A stretch of DNA of 19,658 nt from a virus, in the UHGV virus genome UHGV-0171543. One strand, given 5' to 3'. The position numbers were made by a program, and so were the translations under genes. This document shows, one piece after another, positions 1 through 10,626 of the stretch. Position 1 is the stretch's first letter. Each line of letters opens with the position of its first letter. The notes under the pieces were generated by a model, which was not told the origin of the DNA, searched no databases, and saw only the letters and a list, made by a program, of their open reading frames with translations.

Positions 1-206
1 TTAGCATCAGCAAGCTCCTTTGTGTATCTGGCGTCGAGTTCTGCTACATCACGTTGACGCTTCTGCATGTCAGCGATTGTGGATGTGGCCTTATCGCGCT
101 GCTCTTTGTAGGTGATGGCGTTATCACGGTAATGATTAACAGCCCATGACAGACAGACGATGATGCAGATAATCAGAGCGGAGATAATCGCAGTTACTCT
201 GCTCAT
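1..206 (-). CDS. Rz: Rz-type i-spanin, N-terminal part only (gene runs off the window start)
   Basis: Minus-strand ATG at 206..204 overlaps the R stop codon (ATGA). Hand translation [68 protein letters not shown] shows an N-terminal TM anchor then a charged helical region, typical of Rz. Position after S and R fits. Confidence 0.75.
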
Positions 207-700
207 TGCCGCCCCCACAAACAGACTTCACGCTCAATCTCACGGCGAGTCATCAGCCCTTTCCATTGCTTACCGCCAGCATATGTCCAGCGACGTAGCT
301 GATCACATGCGCCTTTGATATCGCCCTGGTTTATTTTGCGAAGAAGCGTCGATGTTCTGAAATTTCCAGCACCAACGTTGTAAACGAACGAGTAAAGAGC
401 GCCGCGCGTTGTTTCCGGTATATCGACTTTGATGTACGGGTTAATTTGTCTGGCGACAGTGGCAAGGTCTTTATTCAGGAGGGCTTTGCATTCTGCTTCG
501 GTATACGTTTTACCGAGCATAATGTCTTTTCCGGTGTGCCCGTAACATACAGTCCATACACCAACGATATCTTTATATGGTATGTAGCTGACGCCTTCCA
601 GACCATCGTTACCACTTGGGCCAGTGATTAACACAGATGCTATAGCAATAGCCCCGCCACCAATAGCCGCAGCAACGGCTTTTCGTAATGATGGAGGCAT
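203..700 (-). CDS. R: SAR endolysin (phage 21 R-type lysozyme with N-terminal signal-anchor-release domain)
   Basis: 165-aa ORF with a Gly/Ala-rich weakly hydrophobic N-terminus ([20 protein letters not shown]) followed by a lysozyme-like domain. Recalled as matching phage 21 / DLP12 SAR endolysin. Its start overlaps the holin stop. Confidence 0.9.
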
Positions 701-915
701 TATTCACCTCTCGCAGCCTTTCTTCTGTCTTCTCTGATTTTGAAGTACAGATTTGTCAGATAGGTGAGAAAGCCCAACACAAGGCTTCCAAGCACTCCAA
801 TCGCAGCCCACTGTGATGGACTGACCTGATCCAACCACTGTAAAAACCAGTATCCCGCACTACCAGCGGATGTTCCGTAAGCAATGCCAGTTGAGATTTT
901 GTCCATTGATTTCAT
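700..915 (-). CDS. S: Pinholin (S21-type class II holin)
   Basis: 71-aa ORF with two TM segments and a charged C-terminus ([13 protein letters not shown]), beginning MKSMDK (dual-start motif). Recalled as matching phage 21 S / DLP12 EssD. Sits immediately upstream of R. Confidence 0.9.
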
Positions 916-1033: not shown

Positions 1034-1109
1034 TGGTGCTGGTTAACGGACTTGAACCGCTACCCATTCGCTTACAAGGCGACTGCTCTACCATTGGAGC
1101 TAAACCAGC
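1034..1109 (-). tRNA. tRNA, predicted Thr (anticodon UGU)
   Basis: Hand-folded 76-nt cloverleaf on the minus strand: perfect 7-bp acceptor stem (GCTGGTT/AACCAGC), D-arm GCTC-CAATGGTA-GAGC, anticodon loop CTTGTAA, T-arm AGCGG-TTCAAGT-CCGTT, encoded CCA. One G-A mismatch at the top of the anticodon stem. Confidence 0.6.
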
Positions 1110-1114
1110 ATATT

Positions 1115-1189
1115 TGGAGGGGCAGCGTGGACTCGAACCACGATAAGAAGGTTAACGGCCTTCCGTAATGACCTTTATACGACTGACCC
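1115..1189 (-). tRNA. tRNA-like element, possibly degenerate (Asn GUU-like anticodon loop with C at position 33)
   Basis: 75-nt minus-strand sequence with a canonical T-arm (CGTGG-TTCGAGT-CCACG), encoded CCA and a 5-bp anticodon stem with loop CCGTTAA. The acceptor stem has one mismatch (GGGTCAG vs CTGCCCC) and the D-arm is short and atypical. Lies 5 nt from the preceding tRNA. Confidence 0.35.
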
Positions 1190-3102: not shown

Positions 3103-3281
3103 CTTGTTTTCCTCGCACGTTCTCTAAGCCACCGGATATCCCACAGGTGAGCCGTGTAGTTGAAGGTTTTTACGTCAGATTCTTTTAGGATTGGCTTGGG
3201 TTTATTTCTGGAGCGTTTCGTTGGAAGGTATTTGCAGTTTTCGCAGATTATGTCGGTGATACTTCGTCGCTGTCGCCTCAT
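3099..3281 (-). CDS. ninE: NinE-like protein
   Basis: 60-aa [26 protein letters not shown]...[28 protein letters not shown], recalled as near-identical to lambda NinE. Confidence 0.8.
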
Positions 3282-3688
3282 TCATACCTCCTGTCGGTAA
3301 ATCTGACACCCTGACCAATAGCCCAGGCTGTTGTGTACTCGATCAGACTTGCCATACGCTTCACGCTCATCTGTGCGCTACTCTCCCGAATGTTGACGAA
3401 TTCGCCTTCAAGGCCGGGCAAAACATCAGCTTCCTGTTTTGTTGCCACTGCATGACCGCTGATCAACAAAACCTTCCATTGTTCTGGTTTTAACCATTTG
3501 CCGCACCATTGAACCTGACGAGCGATATCCGCCAGCATCGCGTGAAATTTTGCGTTCTGGTCAAGGTTGCGCTTGTAGTCAGTAATGCGGATGGTGACTG
3601 GCTTGTCTTTATCGAGTGGTGTTGCGAGGATGGCGTTGATTGCGGCTTGCTGTTGTTGCTTAGTTCGGAGGAATATTGTTTGCTTCAC
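3278..3688 (-). CDS. ninB: NinB (Orf) family recombination mediator
   Basis: 136-aa ORF with the [13 protein letters not shown] and WKVLLIS pattern, similar to lambda NinB (RSLDQNRKLWACL). Position is upstream of NinE. Confidence 0.75.
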
Positions 3689-3699
3689 TGAACACTCCT

Positions 3700-3891
3700 T
3701 TATTTTTTATGCCTGTAACCCCATTCTTCCAGCAACCTTGCGGCGTACCACCCAAGAAACAAAGGAAAGAACATTACAATGAGATATTCCCCGCCACGGT
3801 CAATGTTCGAAATTGACCAGATTACGATGTAGCCGGTGCAGGACAGGAATATTACAAACCCCAAAAAGCTACTTCGTCGACTCATGCTCAC
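3700..3891 (-). CDS. Small hypothetical membrane protein (two predicted TM helices)
   Basis: 63-aa ORF with hydrophobic stretches FLGFVIFLSCTGYIVIW and IVMFFPLFLGWYAARLL. Overlaps the next gene by 4 nt. Confidence 0.45.
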   Translation of the reverse strand: MSMSRRSSFLGFVIFLSCTGYIVIWSISNIDRGGEYLIVMFFPLFLGWYAARLLEEWGYRHKK

Positions 3892-4208
3892 TCCTTCACT
3901 TTGATTCCAGCAGCGCGGATGTTTTCCTCATAAGCATCCATTGCATCACCGAAGCCATTGGAATAATCAACAGTAAACCCTTTGGCTAATGCTTCTCTGC
4001 TGTCGATAAACTTTGGCGCGGTTATTTCAATAGCTGCTCGCGATGCCTGCCACGTTTGCCAGTGGCCTTGAACATCGTCCATCACGTATTGACCACCAAT
4101 ATTACCGCTGCCAATTTCATGGTGATTTTCAGGGTAACGGATAAGGTCTGAGTATTCGCCTCCACGTCGCAACCAACTTTCTTCAAACTGCTTTCTTGAT
4201 TCGTCCAT
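3888..4208 (-). CDS. Hypothetical protein
   Basis: 106-aa acidic ORF with no motif I recognise. Embedded in the operon between the helicase and ninB. Confidence 0.5.
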   Translation of the reverse strand: MDESRKQFEESWLRRGGEYSDLIRYPENHHEIGSGNIGGQYVMDDVQGHWQTWQASRAAIEITAPKFIDSREALAKGFTVDYSNGFGDAMDAYEENIRAAGIKVKE

Positions 4209-4225
4209 CGATACTTACCCTCAGT

Positions 4226-4432
4226 TCAACTCACAAAACGCCACGCCATTTTTGCTATAGCGACAGGCGCAACACCGATAATCACCCACATGAGAATGCT
4301 ACCGAAAAGCACACCCACCAGGTCTTTACCTTCGCCTACCAACCGGACAAAACAGCCAGCAACCACAATGAAAGTCGCCACCATCCACATAGCACCGAGA
4401 AGCCTCAATGCAGAGAAAATCAACTCAACCAC
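4226..4432 (-). CDS. Small hypothetical membrane protein (two predicted TM helices; GTG start)
   Basis: 68-aa ORF, almost entirely hydrophobic (MWMVATFIVVAGCFV, VLFGSILMWVIIGVAPVAIA). The start codon is GTG on the minus strand. Confidence 0.4.
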   Translation of the reverse strand: MVELIFSALRLLGAMWMVATFIVVAGCFVRLVGEGKDLVGVLFGSILMWVIIGVAPVAIAKMAWRFVS

Positions 4433-4507
4433 GATTTACTCTCCCCCAAATAAAAAGGCCTGCGATTACCAGCAGGCCTGTTACAAGCTCAGTGATGTAG
4501 ATGGTCA

Positions 4508-5944
4508 TCAGAATCCTCCTTTCTTCTTGGACTGCGGTTCCTCGCGTTCACGTCGGCGCATTTCAGCAGACTGTTGGTCTGTGTCATAAATAGCGCCATT
4601 TGCCTGAATGCAATACACCGTGCCGGTATTGCCATGACGATTGAGACGAAGGATTAGTTCGGTTTCACCAGGTGGAACACTGTCATCAAAAGCGCCTTCA
4701 CGATGGATCCCAACCCAATAATCGCAATCCTGTTCAATCTGCCCTGTATCTCGTGAGTCACTTGGTAATGGGCGTTTATTGGTTCGGCTTTCCAGTGCGC
4801 GGTTAAGCTGTGTCAGAAGCACAACAACGCAATCAAGCTCTTTGGCAAGGTTCTTCAGTCCTTTGGTGATCATGCCGTAAGCAAGGTCGTTGCGATCGGC
4901 CTTCTCAGCGGTCATTAGTGTCAGGTAATCGACCAGAATCATGCCAACACATCCTTTTTCTCGCTTTATTCGACGGCTTTCGCTGACGATTTGAGCCAGA
5001 GATAATCCCGGCGTGTCGTCGATGTAAAGCATGTCGATTTCACTCAAGCGATTAGCTGTTTCGATTGCCCTGTTGAAGTCACCATCGTAATCACCCTGAT
5101 AGCCGTCATCAGCGTCATTTGTCGCCGGAAGGTAAAAAATATTCGGGTTAACACCTGACTTCTGTCCCACCAGTTTTTCCAGTATCTGGTCACCTGGCAT
5201 TTCAAGGCTGAACATCAGAGCGGGCTTTTTCTCATGCACTGCGCAGTTGATTGCCATCTGGCTGTATATCGTCGTTTTCCCCATCTTAGGGCGAGCGCCA
5301 ATGACAAACAGAGAGCCTTTCACCAGACCTTTCGGTGACAGCATCCTGTCCAGCGATGGGATCCCTGTGCTCATTCCTCGTTGTTCTCCTGACGGGTCAA
5401 ATCGCTTCTCAAGGTCGCTAACCCAGTCTTCCATGACCTCACCAAATGAGCGAAGGCCGCGACGCGATCCGGTTTTTGCATGGTCTGTCAGTTGCGTGAA
5501 AATCGCCTGAATAGCTTCGTACTTCTGCGTTGCAGTCATTCCGTTGCGGGAATAGAGCAATTCCGTCGCTTCAGTCATGCGGTTGATGGCGTAGCGTTCC
5601 ATTGCGGTTTCACGAACCTGCATTGCATAGGCAACGATGTTTGCTGCGCTTGGCGTGTTCTTTGCGATCTCAGCGATATAAGCAAAACCGCCAACAGACG
5701 CCGTTAACGATTTACGCTCCAGTTCATCGAAAAGCGTCAGGCCATCTACTGGCTTTTGCTCCCGGTGCATTCTGGTTATTTCTTCGAAAAGGATTTTGTG
5801 TGGTCGGCCGTAAAATGAATCAGGCTTCAGCATCGCCAGAACTTTCTGGACGCGCTCACTGCTGTCATCATCCAGAAGCAATCCACCAATCACCGCCTGC
5901 TCTGCCTCGATGCTATGGGGCGGCGCATAAAAATTATCGGTCAT
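4508..5944 (-). CDS. DnaB-family replicative helicase (lambdoid P-position helicase)
   Basis: About 478 aa from the ATG at 5944, which has an AGGGTG Shine-Dalgarno-like element upstream (the ORF track extends to a GTG at 5959). Walker A GARPKMGKT, DnaB-like N-terminal domain, Walker B-like ILVDYLTLM. Overlaps the O stop. Confidence 0.9.
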   Translation of the reverse strand: MTDNFYAPPHSIEAEQAVIGGLLLDDDSSERVQKVLAMLKPDSFYGRPHKILFEEITRMHREQKPVDGLTLFDELERKSLTASVGGFAYIAEIAKNTPSAANIVAYAMQVRETAMERYAINRMTEATELLYSRNGMTATQKYEAIQAIFTQLTDHAKTGSRRGLRSFGEVMEDWVSDLEKRFDPSGEQRGMSTGIPSLDRMLSPKGLVKGSLFVIGARPKMGKTTIYSQMAINCAVHEKKPALMFSLEMPGDQILEKLVGQKSGVNPNIFYLPATNDADDGYQGDYDGDFNRAIETANRLSEIDMLYIDDTPGLSLAQIVSESRRIKREKGCVGMILVDYLTLMTAEKADRNDLAYGMITKGLKNLAKELDCVVVLLTQLNRALESRTNKRPLPSDSRDTGQIEQDCDYWVGIHREGAFDDSVPPGETELILRLNRHGNTGTVYCIQANGAIYDTDQQSAEMRRREREEPQSKKKGGF

Positions 5945-6833
5945 CGTGTTCACCCTCACGAACTTTCAGGTAGGTATTGTCGTTAAGCAGGAAATCAAAT
6001 CCCTTTTTGTGCCAGACGGTTCCGCGTTGATGGTTTGGGCGTTCTTCGAACATCCATCGGCAATTTTCGCCTACGTAGCTCAAATAATTTCTCCAGTCCT
6101 GCATCGAGAACCCATGCCCGTCAAGCTGGCGGGTTATCACTCCGGCTTTGCGCCAGAACGTTCGGATCTGGTTTTTACGCTTGTCATTCAGTGCGCGGAT
6201 TCTTGGCGCTTCAGGAAGGATTTCGTGGTAAGCATCGACAACATCCTGACAGCTAACGGAAGGTTTTTTCTTGTCAGACTTTTTGTCTGCTGTGGCACTC
6301 TCTAATACGTCAGTATTAGAGATAATATTATTATATTCTTTATCTGTGGTAATTTGCTGGTAATCTGCTGGTACAGTATTGCTTACAGGCATTGGTATTG
6401 CTGGCTTTGAGGTGGTAATTTGCTGGTAATCTGCTGGTACAAAATTTGACTGATAATCGTCATATTTCTCTACCGAGAAAACTGAGAATTTACCGTGTGA
6501 AACCCAGTCAATCATGCCGAGTTTTTTGAACTTTCTAAGCAGGTACTGAACGCGATCTGGTTTGAGTCCTGTTTCAAACGCCAGAGAGTTTCTACCGCCA
6601 AGTAGCTTACCTCTGCCTACCAGAATTTCTCCTGCGTCAGTCATTACATACTCAGGCGTATGCTTTGCTTTGAGGATTAAGTGAACCCACAGATGTGCTG
6701 CTTCTGCGTCCTTGTAAAACGGCACATCCATAATTTTACGGTGCAGCAAGGCATACCCCTTACCGCTGCTTTGATGCGGTTGTTGTAGCCTTCTGGCCTC
6801 TCTGGCTTCGGCTAGATTAGATATGTTACTCAT
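5934..6833 (-). CDS. Replication initiator O-like protein (non-lambda allele) containing the origin iterons
   Basis: 299-aa ORF directly downstream of cII in the O position. The repeated peptide [10 protein letters not shown] is encoded by the DNA iterons. The N-terminal domain does not match lambda O as I recall it. Confidence 0.8.
6300..6441. repeat. Putative replication origin inside the O gene: iterons plus adjacent AT-rich segment
   Basis: GGTAATTTGCTGGTAATCTGCTGGTACA occurs twice (6348..6375 and 6414..6441), each made of two approx. 10-bp GCTGGTA units. A perfect 8-bp inverted repeat (TCTAATAC-GTCA-GTATTAGA, 6301..6320) and an AT-rich run (6321..6345) lie just beyond, downstream in the O reading direction. 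Confidence 0.65.
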
Positions 6834-7004: not shown

Positions 7005-7304
7005 TCAGAATTCCATCTGGATTTGTTCAGAACGCTCGGTCTTGCACACCGGGCGTTTTTTATTGGTGAGTCCATCAAGCGCATACTTAAAAGCCCTGCT
7101 AATCGGACTGATGTCTGATGCCATTCCAAAAGCACACAGAACCGAAGCAATAAATCTCCAGTCCGTTCTGCTTATCTTCGATTCATGACAGCCAATCATC
7201 TTTGCCAGACCGCGCTGGGTAAGCGTGGACAGGTTGATGAGTAAATCTGTTTCTGCGCGATCAACGTCGCGCTGTGATAGTTTGCTGTAACTTGTTTGTT
7301 CCAT
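7005..7304 (-). CDS. cII: cII-like transcriptional activator (mosaic: lambda-type C-terminus, different N-terminal domain)
   Basis: 99-aa ORF at the cII position. The C-terminal [17 protein letters not shown] matches the lambda cII C-terminus as recalled. The N-terminal 75 aa carries a different HTH-like segment ([18 protein letters not shown]). Confidence 0.7.
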
Positions 7305-7620: not shown

Positions 7621-7637
7621 TTAGTACATGCAATCAT

Positions 7638-7705
7638 TATCACCGCTAGAGGTAAAATAGTCAACACGCACGGTGTTAGATATTTATCCCTTGCGGTGAT
7701 AGATT
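7638..7705. promoter_or_regulatory. oR1-oR2-oR3 operators with divergent pR and pRM promoters
   Basis: 17-bp sites TATCACCGCTAGAGGTA (7638..7654), CAACACGCACGGTGTTA (7662..7678), TATCCCTTGCGGTGATA (7685..7701). pR -35/-10 on the minus strand (AGTCAA 7659..7664, ATTATC 7637..7642). pRM -35 TAGATA and -10 TAGATT on the + strand. cI starts at the first ATG, as for the leaderless lambda cI mRNA. Confidence 0.9.
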
Positions 7706-8432: not shown

Positions 8433-8870
8433 ATGATTAAAGAACGTATTTCTTATATCATTCCGATTGCGATGGATGAAGGCAACCCCGTAACTCCAGT
8501 TCTTATCTATGAAATGGATAAAGACTCCCATGAAGTGGATCTGTCATTTGGCGCTTTTTTTATCGGCCTTAAGGCTACAAAAAAATATTCCATAGGCATT
8601 GAGGTTTTCAATGCTCAAGAAATACCGATACCAATTGACACAAAACTGTACTCCAACCATAAGTTTTTTACGGTAGCAGAAGCCAACGATGGAGAAACCA
8701 TCGTATCAACTTCTATGAGAATTAACTTCCCAAGGGTGAAAATTATCAAGCCTGGGATATTCGAAGTTAGAGCATCACTGGTTAATCCTGAGAAAGGCGA
8801 AGTAATTGATGTAAAAAGTTCGTTTTTTGACGTGAAGATAACAGGATCAGTTCGCGATGAGTTTAGATAA
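8433..8870 (+). CDS. Hypothetical protein A of a two-gene cassette at the rexA position (unknown function)
   Basis: 145-aa ORF starting 7 nt after the cI stop, same strand. No TM segment and no motif I recognise. Confidence 0.7.
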   Translation: MIKERISYIIPIAMDEGNPVTPVLIYEMDKDSHEVDLSFGAFFIGLKATKKYSIGIEVFNAQEIPIPIDTKLYSNHKFFTVAEANDGETIVSTSMRINFPRVKIIKPGIFEVRASLVNPEKGEVIDVKSSFFDVKITGSVRDEFR

Positions 8871-9228
8871 CAAGGTTGCTCAGCTTCGTCCAAATCAAAA
8901 CATATCTCGCCCAATTGGACACTATTACACTGATGATGCATACTCACGGCATGGTGGAGGAAACGGCGGAGGTAACATGCTTGAGGCTAGAGTTGCAAAG
9001 CTAGAGTCTGATGTTGAATACATCAAGCGCGATCTCGCTGAGGTAAAGTCAGATATAAAATCTGTTGATTCTCGTCTGTCAGGTATTGAGACAAGCATTA
9101 GCTCAGCAAAAACCACCATTAAGGCATCTGCGGTCGTTGTCAGTTTCGTGTTCGCATTTTGCGCCTACATTTTTGGAAGTTATGTTTCCAAAATCCTTGA
9201 TGCCTTAAACGGACTCATTCTTAAGTAA
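8857..9228 (+). CDS. Hypothetical membrane protein B of the cassette: Gly-rich linker, amphipathic coiled coil, single C-terminal TM helix
   Basis: 123-aa ORF overlapping gene A by 14 nt. An alternative start at ATG 8977 is preceded by GGAGGT and would give 84 aa. Heptad-like segment LEARVAKLESDVEYIKRDLAEVKSDIKSV, then hydrophobic AVVVSFVFAFCAYIFGSYV near the C-terminus. Confidence 0.7.
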   Translation: MSLDNKVAQLRPNQNISRPIGHYYTDDAYSRHGGGNGGGNMLEARVAKLESDVEYIKRDLAEVKSDIKSVDSRLSGIETSISSAKTTIKASAVVVSFVFAFCAYIFGSYVSKILDALNGLILK

Positions 9229-9720: not shown

Positions 9721-10029
9721 ATGACGGTAATCGTGTACGGAAAATCAACATTTGCAGGAAATGCCAAAACTCGCCGTCATGAGCGGCGCAGAAAGCTGGC
9801 TATCGAGCGTGATGCTATATGCAACATCATCGATTCGATCTTCGGTACAGACAGTGATGAACCTTTTCAGGAAAAACCGAGAAAGCGTTTAAATCTTTCT
9901 GAAAAAGCAATATCACTCAGCAACATTCGTAACCAAAATACCGATGAATGCAGTGGAAGTATTTGTCTTCCAAATGTAGCTCTTTACGCGGCAGGCTACA
10001 GGAAATCAAAACAACTGACGGCGAGATGA
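9721..10029 (+). CDS. N: N-family transcription antiterminator, P22 gene 24 type (arginine-rich motif)
   Basis: 102-aa ORF, first gene after pL, with GAGGA RBS. N-terminal GNAKTRRHERRRKLAIER is the P22 N arginine-rich boxB-binding peptide as recalled. Not lambda N. Confidence 0.85.
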   Translation: MTVIVYGKSTFAGNAKTRRHERRRKLAIERDAICNIIDSIFGTDSDEPFQEKPRKRLNLSEKAISLSNIRNQNTDECSGSICLPNVALYAAGYRKSKQLTAR

Positions 10030-10044
10030 TAAATCATTTGCTAA

Positions 10045-10626
10045 TTACTTGTTTTTGCCATGCTTATCCTGAGCGATAAGTTCATCCATAAGACTGTCTT
10101 TCTTCCCAGCAAACCTAATGTAGCACTCATTTCTATAGCGTTCCGGGATAACAAAACGGTCGATTTCAGGATATCCAGTAGCAGAAGGTATCCGAATAAG
10201 AAGCCCTTTTTCGAGCAATGAGATTGCTTCAGGGCTTCCCTTTTCTGTCTTTAGCTGGTTATTCGCGGCTACAGCGAATGCCAAATACGCTCTTTCTCCA
10301 AGAGTTAACGAATCAAACAAATCTTGCACATATTTTTCTTCTTTAGATTTGCGCTTCTGAGCAGCGGATACCTCAATTCTTTCAGTCACAGCGTGATAAG
10401 CGGAATTAACAACACCGTTAAGCACATAGCTAACGCAGAACAACAGGATGTAATACATCCAATAATGAGGAAGGATTTCTGGATTATGCAGGTTTATCCA
10501 TTCTTTTACGCTTACCGGCATAACAATAATCAATATGATCAGGATGATTAGCATATGAATCAACTGTTTAAGTGTCATTCCTTGCAGGAAAAAATGCATT
10601 AGTTCCTGCCACCATGAGTTGTTCAT
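10045..10626 (-). CDS. sieB: Superinfection exclusion protein B
   Basis: 193-aa ORF opposite in orientation to N, with an N-terminal hydrophobic segment (LIHMLIILIILIIVMPV). Matches lambda SieB as recalled. Confidence 0.8.
   Translation of the reverse strand: MNNSWWQELMHFFLQGMTLKQLIHMLIILIILIIVMPVSVKEWINLHNPEILPHYWMYYILLFCVSYVLNGVVNSAYHAVTERIEVSAAQKRKSKEEKYVQDLFDSLTLGERAYLAFAVAANNQLKTEKGSPEAISLLEKGLLIRIPSATGYPEIDRFVIPERYRNECYIRFAGKKDSLMDELIAQDKHGKNK

Follow-up and report, generated by a model that had tools for sequence, protein, structure and literature searches.

Lambda Ren, which protects lambda against Rex exclusion, is encoded at the position adjacent to the replication genes. Small membrane exclusion proteins have precedents in temperate phages (SieA/SieB, HK97 gp15 and Cor), and T4 Imm is expressed early in lytic infection. 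The canonical sites of prophage-expressed genes are the sieB-like and rexAB positions. The lambdoid nin genes (ninB-ninI; ninD/E/X/F in P22) are non-essential, delayed-early genes located in the PR operon between the replication genes and Q, and ATGA-type overlaps between neighbouring genes are typical of nin regions (PMC8022706). The tR2 of lambda is a model terminator (10.1101/453969), and its hairpin sequence serves as the terminator in in vitro transcription templates. In lambda and P22, ninB comes immediately after ninA, the mini-ORF that carries tR2, whereas the DNA analysed here has three further genes between tR2 and ninB.

The window, the whole stretch of 19,658 nucleotides that was analysed, carries on its minus strand, in this order, PR, cII, O, a DnaB-type helicase gene, ninA/tR2, p68, p106, p63, ninB, more nin genes, RusA, Q, tRNAs, holin and endolysin (Table 1). 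PHROG assignments were obtained for CII, O, the DnaB helicase, NinB, RusA, Q, the holin, the endolysin, cI, N and a sieB-like gene, and an oop-like terminator was also found. Behind cI, at the rexAB position, are two ORFs without assigned function. Two tRNAs elsewhere in the window were the only Rfam matches. We consider it likely that positions 3700-4508 are the entry to the nin (N-independence) region in the rightward early operon of a lambdoid E. coli prophage, made up of ninA/tR2 and three independent, N-dependent accessory genes. A ninA/tR2 junction accompanied by ordinary mosaic nin-type ORFs is already known, and is common to hundreds of lambdoid phages and prophages.

Table 1. Coordinates of the features discussed, with the evidence for each
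Feature	Position in window	Strand	Evidence and remarks
Endolysin	203..700		PHROG assignment
Holin	700..915		PHROG assignment
ninB/orf recombination mediator	3278..3688	-	phrog_72, E=2e-53; right-hand border of the slot
p63, 61 aa from ATG 3885	3700..3885	-	AAGGAG Shine-Dalgarno sequence, dN/dS
p106, 106 aa, acidic, soluble, mostly helical	3888..4208	-	phrog_343, E=2.8e-30
p68, 68 aa, GTG start overlapping ninA stop (GTGGTTGA)	4226..4432	-	phrog_1165, E=2.2e-35
ninA mini-ORF, 27 aa, MTIYITELVTGLLVIAGLFIWGRVNRG	4425..4508 (including stop)	-	ORF listing; phrog_5907, E=1e-18
Shine-Dalgarno-like GGGGGAGAG	4439..4447	-	Alignment with lambda
tR2-type intrinsic terminator inside ninA	4448..4479	-	Hairpin AGGCCTGC-TGGTAATC-GCAGGCCT (4479..4456), then TTTTATTT
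DnaB-like replicative helicase	4508..5959	-	phrog_19, E=6e-137; left-hand border of the slot
PR-like promoter TTGACT-17-GATAAT	7636..7664	-	Promoter scan; sole promoter-like site upstream of the cluster on the same strand
N-like gene	9721..10029		PHROG assignment

The four minus-strand ORFs that a first-pass annotation of this DNA had described as tightly packed and overlapping are all present, and all look coding from the ORF listing, dN/dS and invariant lengths; the coordinates given there for the 27-aa ORF, 4427..4507, were one base off. Hydropathy gave two hydrophobic spans for p68, two for p63, none for p106 and one for the 27-aa peptide, in agreement with the earlier description of the 68-aa and 63-aa products as two-TM proteins and of the 106-aa product as acidic and soluble. 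The possibility raised there that purifying selection might be lacking was not borne out, dN/dS being 0.17 for p63, 0.25 for ninA, 0.36-0.68 for p68 and 0.39-0.65 for p106. Constraint on p68 and p106 was only moderate (dN/dS 0.4-0.65), and the value for ninB was 0.08.

The 27-aa hydrophobic peptide had been listed as a possible member of the cluster. The ORF itself stands, and it is the already named ninA carrying tR2; NinA is annotated in HK630, Sf6 (gene 45, 'bsq6 boundary sequence'), Lahn2, P22 and CUS-3. It shares base 4508 with the helicase stop codon and overlaps the GTG start of p68 by 8 nt, and is best explained as translationally coupled to the helicase. Across relatives, the ninA start abuts or overlaps the upstream stop in at least seven different upstream contexts, and the ninA stop always abuts or overlaps the start of the next gene. 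In codons 2-11, upstream of the hairpin, variation is mostly synonymous (Leu8 is CTA, CTT, CTG, TTA or TTG), and P22 ninA differs there from the window by synonymous changes only.

The terminator scan identified an 8-bp stem with six GC pairs followed by the T-tract TTTTATTT inside the 27-aa ORF, a canonical intrinsic terminator that is absent from the first-pass annotation. The ninA/tR2 DNA aligned nearly identically with lambda 40571-40643, located between ren and ninB, over the hairpin, the T-tract and the Shine-Dalgarno sequence, and the element is annotated in deposited records, that of Sf6 labelling it 'terminator, homology to phage lambda; tR2', that of Lahn2 'tR2', and those of P22 and mEp235 marking a terminator. 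As the folding energy of the hairpin was not significant in a shuffle test (z = -0.75), the identification of tR2 rests on identity to lambda and not on energy. Judging from this identity and from the N-like gene in the window, tR2 would stop PR transcription here unless N is present. The Shine-Dalgarno-like GGGGGAGAG is common to lambda and the window, preceding the ninB ATG in the former and the p68 GTG in the latter. A second terminator-like site, at 4380..4357 within p68, had three GC pairs, which is at chance level in the terminator scan, and was dismissed. The ninA/tR2 segment of about 80 bp is best explained as a conserved 'boundary sequence' where lambdoid phages swap replication and nin modules.

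Residues 1-68 of p68 align with positions 1-68 of the phrog_1165 profile, i.e. over the full length. The gene is exactly 68 codons long in 56 distinct DNA versions (pS up to 0.56), and its homologues form 197 protein clusters; among the 120 clusters listed, all are of 68 aa save two of 69 and one of 77, none has a Pfam domain, and the name is 'hypothetical' wherever any is given. The Lahn2 counterpart is 'ORF69'. Two alleles were distinguished (about 85-94% and about 49% identity), both of which have the loop RLV[GN][ED]GKD and the C-terminus WVIIGV.PV..AKMAWRFVS. Profile and sequence searches of p68 against the PDB returned only a chance match to a coat protein, and p68 showed no similarity to p63. 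From its hydropathy, p68 is best explained as a predicted two-segment hairpin in the inner membrane.

The p106 product belongs to the family phrog_343/PF26207, which some RefSeq records name 'phiTE_015 family protein', and its relatives include Sf6 gene 48, 933W L0091 and HK022 gp59. Its homologues form 424 clusters, and 120 of the 120 listed carry precomputed PF26207.1. The frame is open in 82 distinct DNA versions, and the gene is mosaic within itself. With no hydrophobic span and a net charge of -7, p106 is best explained as a predicted acidic, cytoplasmic helical protein. Its AlphaFold2 model (pLDDT 71, pTM 0.51) had no match in the PDB by Foldseek (best E about 1), the profile and sequence search of the PDB was also empty, and only uncharacterised phage proteins matched in BFVD. 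When 50 homologues of p106 were scanned against NCBIfam and Pfam, nothing rose above noise. The literature searched, including the PhiTE/ToxIN paper, contained no mention of the name 'phiTE_015', and the search for literature on 933W L0090/L0091 and on small membrane proteins of nin regions returned nothing relevant.

Read from the GTG at 3891, p63 has 63 aa (3700..3891); other gene callers use the ATG at 3885, which gives 61 aa and is preceded by AAGGAG at a distance of 5 nt. The protein has two hydrophobic segments and positive charge at both of its ends, and its topology is probably N-in/C-in. Of 5426 complete E. coli genomes, 195 carry the gene, with identities of 95-99%; it was also found in only four clusters among 5.8 billion proteins, at one locus, probably a mis-binned MAG, in the genome contigs of 185,579 species representatives, and at 27 metagenomic loci, nearly all at least 95% identical. 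The annotation under the match was 'none' in all eight E. coli records displayed, and the RefSeq loci inspected have an annotation gap at this place. p63 appears to be an orphan gene that RefSeq annotation overlooks and that is confined to lambdoid prophages of the E. coli type. Exhaustive HMMER search of 1.8 billion representatives gave four weak matches (E 4e-9 to 2e-5, none below 1e-10) to long proteins (283-5434 aa) in which several stretches matched; these were taken as compositional, as was a sub-threshold match to Acyl_transf_3. Nothing was found for p63 in the PDB by profile or sequence search. A Cor/Llp-like lipoprotein was also considered, using the lipobox [LVI][ASTVI][GAS]C after a signal peptide, and was rejected; FLS-C16 is not conserved (relatives have FLV-C, FLI-C and FLF-C), and the hydrophobic span runs on past the Cys.

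Locus comparison confirmed the earlier statement that this junction is mosaic among lambdoid phages. Sampling of the loci was subject to bias from the two proteins used as queries. In the 98 distinct ninA-to-ninB regions obtained, p68 in state A, p68 in state B and absence of p68 each occurred with every p106 identity class, nine combinations in total, and each of these p68 states was found both with and without p63; the p106 class below 45% identity was found only with p63, because it was sampled via the p63 query alone. At some loci the element immediately before p63 is ninA or a helicase gene. Since the genes assort independently, we infer that p68, p106 and p63 are separate, dispensable nin-type genes and not one system; the co-inheritance and co-variation of components expected of a toxin-antitoxin or other co-adapted module were not seen. 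The same gene order, with the p68 and p106 families, occurs in HK022, Sf6, mEp235 and Lahn2, and p68 and p63 are found with siphovirus-type, P22-type and Stx-type phages alike. The first-pass annotation had assigned the cluster to the position of ren. A locus with lambda-type P (L002) has the order P-ren-ninA/tR2-p68-p106-p63-ninB, and as the three genes come after both ren and tR2 in phages that have this type of P, the slot they occupy is tR2-ninB and they do not stand in for ren. Profile searches with Pfam, PHROG and NCBIfam gave no ren family match for any cluster protein.

A simple-consensus scan, which can miss a weak or non-sigma-70 promoter, detected no promoter-like site on the coding strand from 7636 to 3277. 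The cluster genes abut or overlap their neighbours and sit behind tR2, and the marks of a moron (its own promoter, usually a terminator, or placement in the repressor operon) were not found. Apparently lacking a promoter or terminator of their own, p68, p106 and p63 would be read as a chain, using the Shine-Dalgarno sequence left by tR2, GAGGG before p106, AAGGAG inside the end of p106, and the stop/start overlaps. Their synthesis would begin only once N-modified RNA polymerase from PR has passed tR1 and tR2, and from their position and the example of lambda it would fall in the delayed-early lytic phase and not in the repressed prophage. Superinfection immunity expressed from the prophage, as proposed previously, is unlikely because no promoter-like site lies between PR and the cluster. 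The cluster is best read as a set of N-dependent delayed-early accessory genes, and not as a prophage-expressed toxin or immunity module. The two membrane proteins would most likely exert a non-essential modulation of the inner membrane of the infected cell during lytic growth.

For two of the ORFs, it has to be considered whether they are genes at all. The ninA frame may be open by accident over tR2 and encode no functional peptide, its conservation then being due only to the terminator and to recombination at the boundary sequence. This is possible but doubtful. The hydrophobic core of ninA is indeed encoded by the hairpin and T-tract (GC stem and T-tract yielding Gly/Leu/Ala/Phe/Ile), the C-terminal residues vary widely (RVNRG, RGKS, RGKCG, RGNWRL and others), and frameshifted (locus L072) and truncated (locus L060) variants exist. 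However, the in-frame dN/dS of 0.25 contrasts with off-frame values of 1.85 and 6.2, and the mostly synonymous variation in codons 2-11 and the constant contact of start and stop with the neighbouring genes described above also argue against an accident. A second ninA allele with a different hairpin (GGGGCTA...TAGCCC followed by TTTTTTATT) retains an open hydrophobic ORF of 26-32 aa, and the diverged copy at locus L152 reads MTAYLTECIVGL. That p63 is a spurious ORF, with 3700-3891 a non-coding spacer before ninB, seems extremely improbable. The annotation gap, the lack of a PHROG or Pfam family and an ambiguous dN/dS among copies of 95-99% identity (0.60 in frame against 0.34 in one off-frame reading) would fit a spacer, but comparison with the L152 relative, which has the same length of 61 aa (72% protein and 74% DNA identity), gave an in-frame dN/dS of 0.17, compared with 0.85 and 1.45 for the off-frame readings. 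A strong Shine-Dalgarno sequence precedes the ATG in both copies, 18 distinct DNA versions are free of stops, a variant with a replaced N-terminus stays in frame, and gene callers other than RefSeq's call p63.

With ninA and p63 read as genes, the remaining alternatives concern function. The PHROG matches in the cluster were all to families without known function. None of the four proteins had a PADLOC match at E<=1 or a Pfam or NCBIfam family match (apart from the sub-threshold match of p63), and no sequence or profile similarity to known defence or exclusion proteins (PADLOC; SieA/SieB, Imm, Cor, gp15) was found in the cluster. The first-pass annotation had suggested a small-membrane-protein toxin, exclusion or superinfection-immunity module at the ren position, which would act in the prophage and protect the lysogen. 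Two small proteins with two hydrophobic segments each, a hydrophobic mini-peptide, a highly mosaic junction and the precedents in temperate phages are in its favour, but it is very unlikely: the cluster belongs to the CI-repressed PR operon, is located beyond tR2 and shows no promoter-like site, it is additional to ren and not a substitute, the p68 alleles, p106 alleles and p63 presence reassort freely into nearly every combination, database matches are absent, and the sieB-like gene and the two rexAB-position ORFs already occupy the canonical prophage-expressed places. Most of the earlier interpretation was not supported: the ORFs, their packing, the mosaicism and the protein types were retained, but not the position, the identity of the peptide, the unit or the prophage expression. 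It is also unlikely that p68, p63 or both are early lytic inner-membrane effectors resembling T4 Imm, which would block the entry of secondary phage DNA or alter the envelope or the timing of lysis. Their predicted delayed-early expression, the hairpin-like pair of segments in each, the end charges of p63 and the purifying selection on both genes are consistent with such a role; against it stand the lack of homology to Imm, Sp, Llp, Cor, gp15 or any holin family, the occurrence in siphovirus-, P22- and Stx-type phages, which indicates that they are not tied to one injection machinery, and the dispensability of the whole lambda nin region for laboratory plaque formation. A class II holin or pinholin was rejected for both proteins, which have two hydrophobic segments but no holin PHROG match and lie in the early operon, away from the holin and endolysin genes.

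In the preferred reading, ninA/tR2 followed by separate accessory genes, the tR2-ninB slot is a recurrent insertion point for small genes, and expression only after N antitermination would limit what these genes can do. Also of modest value are the clear coding signature in ninA despite its housing a model terminator, and the presence, in 3.6% of complete E. coli genomes, of a membrane gene of 61 aa on which purifying selection acts. Two bolder readings, which we regard as speculative and improbable, are that (a) ninA is a translated terminator and (b) the tR2-ninB slot is a hot spot at which small inner-membrane effectors of the lytic phase collect. If (a) were true, ribosomes reinitiating from the replication gene would cross the tR2 hairpin and tune termination, and nin-gene expression would be coupled to translation of the replication protein; a translated terminator would explain why the ORF, the coupled start and the coupled stop are kept despite a replaced hairpin sequence. 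If (b) were true, p63 and p68 would represent new families whose products prevent secondary infection or manipulate the envelope.

Compared with the described systems, T4 Imm, HK97 gp15 and P22 SieA are small and have predicted membrane segments, as do p68 and p63, but show no sequence or profile similarity to them; gp15 and SieA are moreover prophage-expressed with signals of their own, which the cluster genes lack. Lambda Ren is a separate soluble protein of 96 aa without similarity to the cluster, its gene lies upstream of tR2, and both occur together in L002. Full-length HMM matches place p68 in phrog_1165 and p106 in phrog_343, and as these families have no known function, membership is silent on activity. 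p68, p106 and p63 have no homology to the named nin genes, and two of them are membrane-type, unlike the characterised nin products with recombination and phosphatase functions. They nevertheless resemble the nin genes in that they sit in the PR operon, with the replication genes on one side and Q on the other, have stops and starts that overlap or abut, carry no signals of their own, reassort freely and are small. The ninA/tR2 element of lambda (also P22 ninA, phage 21 NinA and Sf6 gene 45/'bsq6') occupies the same place as that of the window, straight after the last replication gene or ren. Apart from the last four to five residues of ninA, RVNRG in the window and RGKS in lambda, the two are nearly identical in DNA, including the hairpin, the T-tract and the following GGGGGAGAG, and deposited records annotate them alike.

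The segment between the helicase gene and ninB consists of the known ninA/tR2 boundary and, behind it, three nin-type accessory genes (p68, p106 and p63) that are independent of one another and have no assigned function. The first-pass annotation was confirmed in its observation and only partly supported in its interpretation: its four minus-strand ORFs were recovered with coordinates right to within one base, and by Kyte-Doolittle analysis the 68-mer and 63-mer contain two hydrophobic spans each, as their two-TM description implied, the hydrophobic 27-mer contains one, and the 106-mer, called acidic and soluble, contains zero and has a net charge of -7. PHROG assigned a CII-like activator, O-like initiator, DnaB-like helicase, NinB, HNH protein, RusA, Q-like antiterminator, holin and endolysin to the minus strand, and a cI-type repressor and N-like antiterminator to the plus strand. 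This gene set, together with PR and an oop-like terminator, marks the window as lambdoid prophage DNA from the immunity and early-right region. The nearest DNA matches were E. coli prophages and phages such as phiv205-1, HK022, mEp235 and HK620-like. Genes for tRNA-Thr(tgt) and tRNA-Asn(gtt) (1034-1189, minus strand) lie between the Q-like antiterminator gene (1253-1771) and the holin (700-915) and endolysin (203-700) genes, a site occupied in Stx phages by tRNA and stx genes; toxin genes are absent from the window there.

Features of the window, with the basis of each assignment
Feature	Position	Strand	Basis and remarks
ninB	3278..3688	-	PHROG; downstream of the four small ORFs
63-aa ORF (p63)	3700..3891	-	From GTG; 61 aa if from ATG at 3885
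106-aa ORF (p106)	3888..4208	-	ORF reading
68-aa ORF (p68)	4226..4432	-	GTG start
27-aa ORF (ninA)	4425..4508	-	ORF reading
tR2 hairpin and T-tract inside ninA	4479..4448	-	Terminator scan: AGGCCTGC-TGGTAATC-GCAGGCCT then TTTTATTT
DnaB-type helicase	4508..5959	-	PHROG; upstream of the four small ORFs
oop-like antisense terminator inside cII-like gene	7029-7059	+	Sequence feature
PR, lambda-like promoter	7664..7636	-	Promoter scan: TTGACT-17-GATAAT
Unknown-function ORF behind cI-type repressor	8433-8870	+	phrog_5893 or phrog_6136 (pair); lambda rexAB position
Second such ORF	8857-9228	+	Same phrog_5893/phrog_6136 pair; lambda rexAB position
SieB-like superinfection-exclusion gene	10045-10626	-	phrog_1301, E=2e-123; adjoins N-like antiterminator gene (9721-10029)

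The 27-aa ORF is identified from its sequence as ninA, carrying the intrinsic terminator tR2. In alignment, it was nearly identical to lambda 40571-40643 (the ren-ninB interval), both running from an ATG overlapping the upstream stop through hairpin and T-tract to GGGGGAGAG, a purine run that precedes the ninB ATG in lambda but the p68 GTG in the window. The element is annotated as 'similar to phage 21 NinA', 'bsq6; boundary sequence' and 'terminator, homology to phage lambda; tR2' for Sf6 gene 45, as 'ninA' and 'tR2' in Lahn2, as 'ninA' and 'terminator' in P22, and as 'rho-independent terminator' in mEp235. The hairpin sequence is the same one that serves as terminator of in-vitro transcription templates, and lambda tR2, with its near-perfect U-tract, is a model terminator (10.1101/453969).

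ninA is probably translated. Its dN/dS was 0.25 in frame versus 1.85 and 6.2 off frame; in codons 2-11, upstream of the hairpin, changes are almost all synonymous or conservative, with Leu8 using five Leu codons and P22 differing from the window only synonymously. In at least seven different upstream settings the ATG lies against the preceding stop or overlaps it, and the ninA stop stands in the same relation to the start that follows. A second allele (MTIYITELITGAIYTVALFYWIK..., HK97 gp56 / CUS-3 type; related loci L073, L055, L012, L088, L058, L062 and L157-L159) has another hairpin (GGGGCTA...TAGCCC + TTTTTTATT) and keeps both terminator and ORF, a hydrophobic frame of 26-32 aa that stays open; a diverged copy reads MTAYLTECIVGL. 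Variable C-terminal residues, a frameshifted copy (L072) and a truncated copy (L060) count against a functional peptide, and the role could rest with the peptide or merely with the act of translating ninA. In HK022 (L003 2053-2800), ninA is interrupted: its first half continues into unrelated sequence as a 34-aa ORF, a 203-aa gene comes next, and the tR2 half reappears ahead of p68, thereby placing a recombination joint within ninA, just before the hairpin.

The proposed placement of the cluster at the ren position did not hold. The gene order in E. coli UTAK-6 is P, ren, ninA/tR2, p68, p106, p63, ninB, so the cluster is additional to ren and downstream of tR2, and the slot between tR2 and ninB is empty in lambda and P22. 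p68 matches phrog_1165 over its full length and has homologues in 197 clusters in 5.8 billion proteins; among the 120 clusters listed, all but three are 68 aa, those named are 'hypothetical', and none carries a Pfam domain. The Lahn2 counterpart is 'ORF69'. The gene has two alleles, at about 85-94% and about 49% identity, in which the length, the C-terminus, the loop RLV[GN][ED]GKD and the pair of hydrophobic segments are all kept; dN/dS was 0.36-0.68, and the window's allele occurs in 521 of 5426 complete E. coli genomes. The GTG start is preferred to the shorter reading in the mEp235 annotation, because the stretch from GTG to the first ATG is conserved at the protein level and an SD inherited from the tR2 region lies 6 nt upstream. 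Two related loci (L006, L007) carry a 2-nt deletion near codon 5 that shifts the N-terminal frame; either p68 is a pseudogene there or a downstream start is used.

p106 matches phrog_343 and has homologues in 424 clusters, with PF26207.1 precomputed on all 120 listed. RefSeq labels the same protein 'hypothetical' or 'phiTE_015 family protein', and record cross-references relate it to Sf6 gene 48 (in mEp235) and gene 48 to 933W L0091 (in Sf6). The alignment of this PF26207/phrog_343 family (A2) revealed mosaicism within the gene, two swappable cassettes lying between conserved blocks (N-terminus ESRKQFE, core W..WQASRAAIE, C-terminus IRAAGxKVK), and many genomes match half of the gene only; dN/dS was 0.39-0.65. 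Some relatives have a Cys-rich or other N-terminal extension (127-140 aa). The AlphaFold2 model contained four helices, two short strands and disorder at residues 24-43 (pLDDT 71, pTM 0.51). No PDB relative was found by the fold of this model or by sequence, and BFVD matches were only uncharacterised proteins, from phages of Salmonella, Pseudomonas, Rheinheimera and Aeromonas.

p63 is a genuine gene of narrow distribution that reference annotation seems to have overlooked. It had no family match in PHROG, Pfam, NCBIfam or PADLOC. Among 5.8 billion proteins it has only four clusters, each starting from ATG; three have 61 aa and the fourth 56 aa, and one of the four is 72% identical. This relative, of the same length and with 74% DNA identity, has a DnaB helicase gene directly upstream and a ninA-like ORF downstream. 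Against it, p63 gave a dN/dS of 0.17 in frame, compared with off-frame values of 0.85 and 1.45, and a strong SD is present in each copy. Exhaustive HMMER searching of 1.8 billion representatives gave no homologue below E = 1e-10, and four weak matches to long proteins were taken as compositional. p63 occurs in 195 of 5426 complete E. coli genomes (95-99% identity) and, among 185,579 species representatives, at one locus; the eight E. coli rows listed all lack an annotated gene under the match, and the RefSeq loci inspected have an annotation gap at its position. A 100% identical copy in lambdoid context was present in L160 (JAEZIN010000021.1), from a MAG labelled 'Bacillota bacterium'; this contig probably derives from an E. 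coli prophage and was mis-binned. In L186 (1960-2183), an indel replaces the N-terminus (MTTRLLGFVIFLFC...), with the remainder in frame. Identification as a lipoprotein was rejected, as the FLS-C motif is not a conserved lipobox.

A toxin, exclusion or superinfection-immunity function had been suggested for the cluster. Among 98 distinct ninA-to-ninB regions (586 to 1406 bp), p68 state (allele A, allele B or absent) and p106 identity class are found in all nine pairings, and p63 is both present and absent with every p68 state; it also directly follows ninA in places, ahead of a distant p106-like gene. Comparison of p63 with p68 detected no similarity. This free reassortment of unrelated genes speaks against a toxin-antitoxin or multi-part module whose components are co-adapted. 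Scanning of the coding strand from PR found no promoter-like site before a weak one inside ninB, and the cluster genes abut or overlap each other, an SD lying within the preceding gene; overlapping stop/start chains are typical of nin regions (PMC8022706). In lambda, every gene past cro needs N antitermination, and plaques still form when the entire nin region is deleted (PMC10695390). Given the lack of a promoter-like site, the abutting genes and this N dependence, p68, p106 and p63 would be delayed-early lytic genes, off in the repressed prophage, which makes immunity or exclusion expressed by the prophage unlikely for the cluster. The window's candidates for that function are the SieB-like gene and the two ORFs behind cI. 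These two ORFs have no significant PADLOC match, and their location suits expression in the lysogen better than that of the nin cluster does.

Two points from this segment are worth keeping: p63, a gene that appears to lack annotation, and the ninA coding signature across a model terminator. A membrane role in the lytic phase, suggested by topology and timing only, is possible, and its logic would be comparable to that of T4 Imm.
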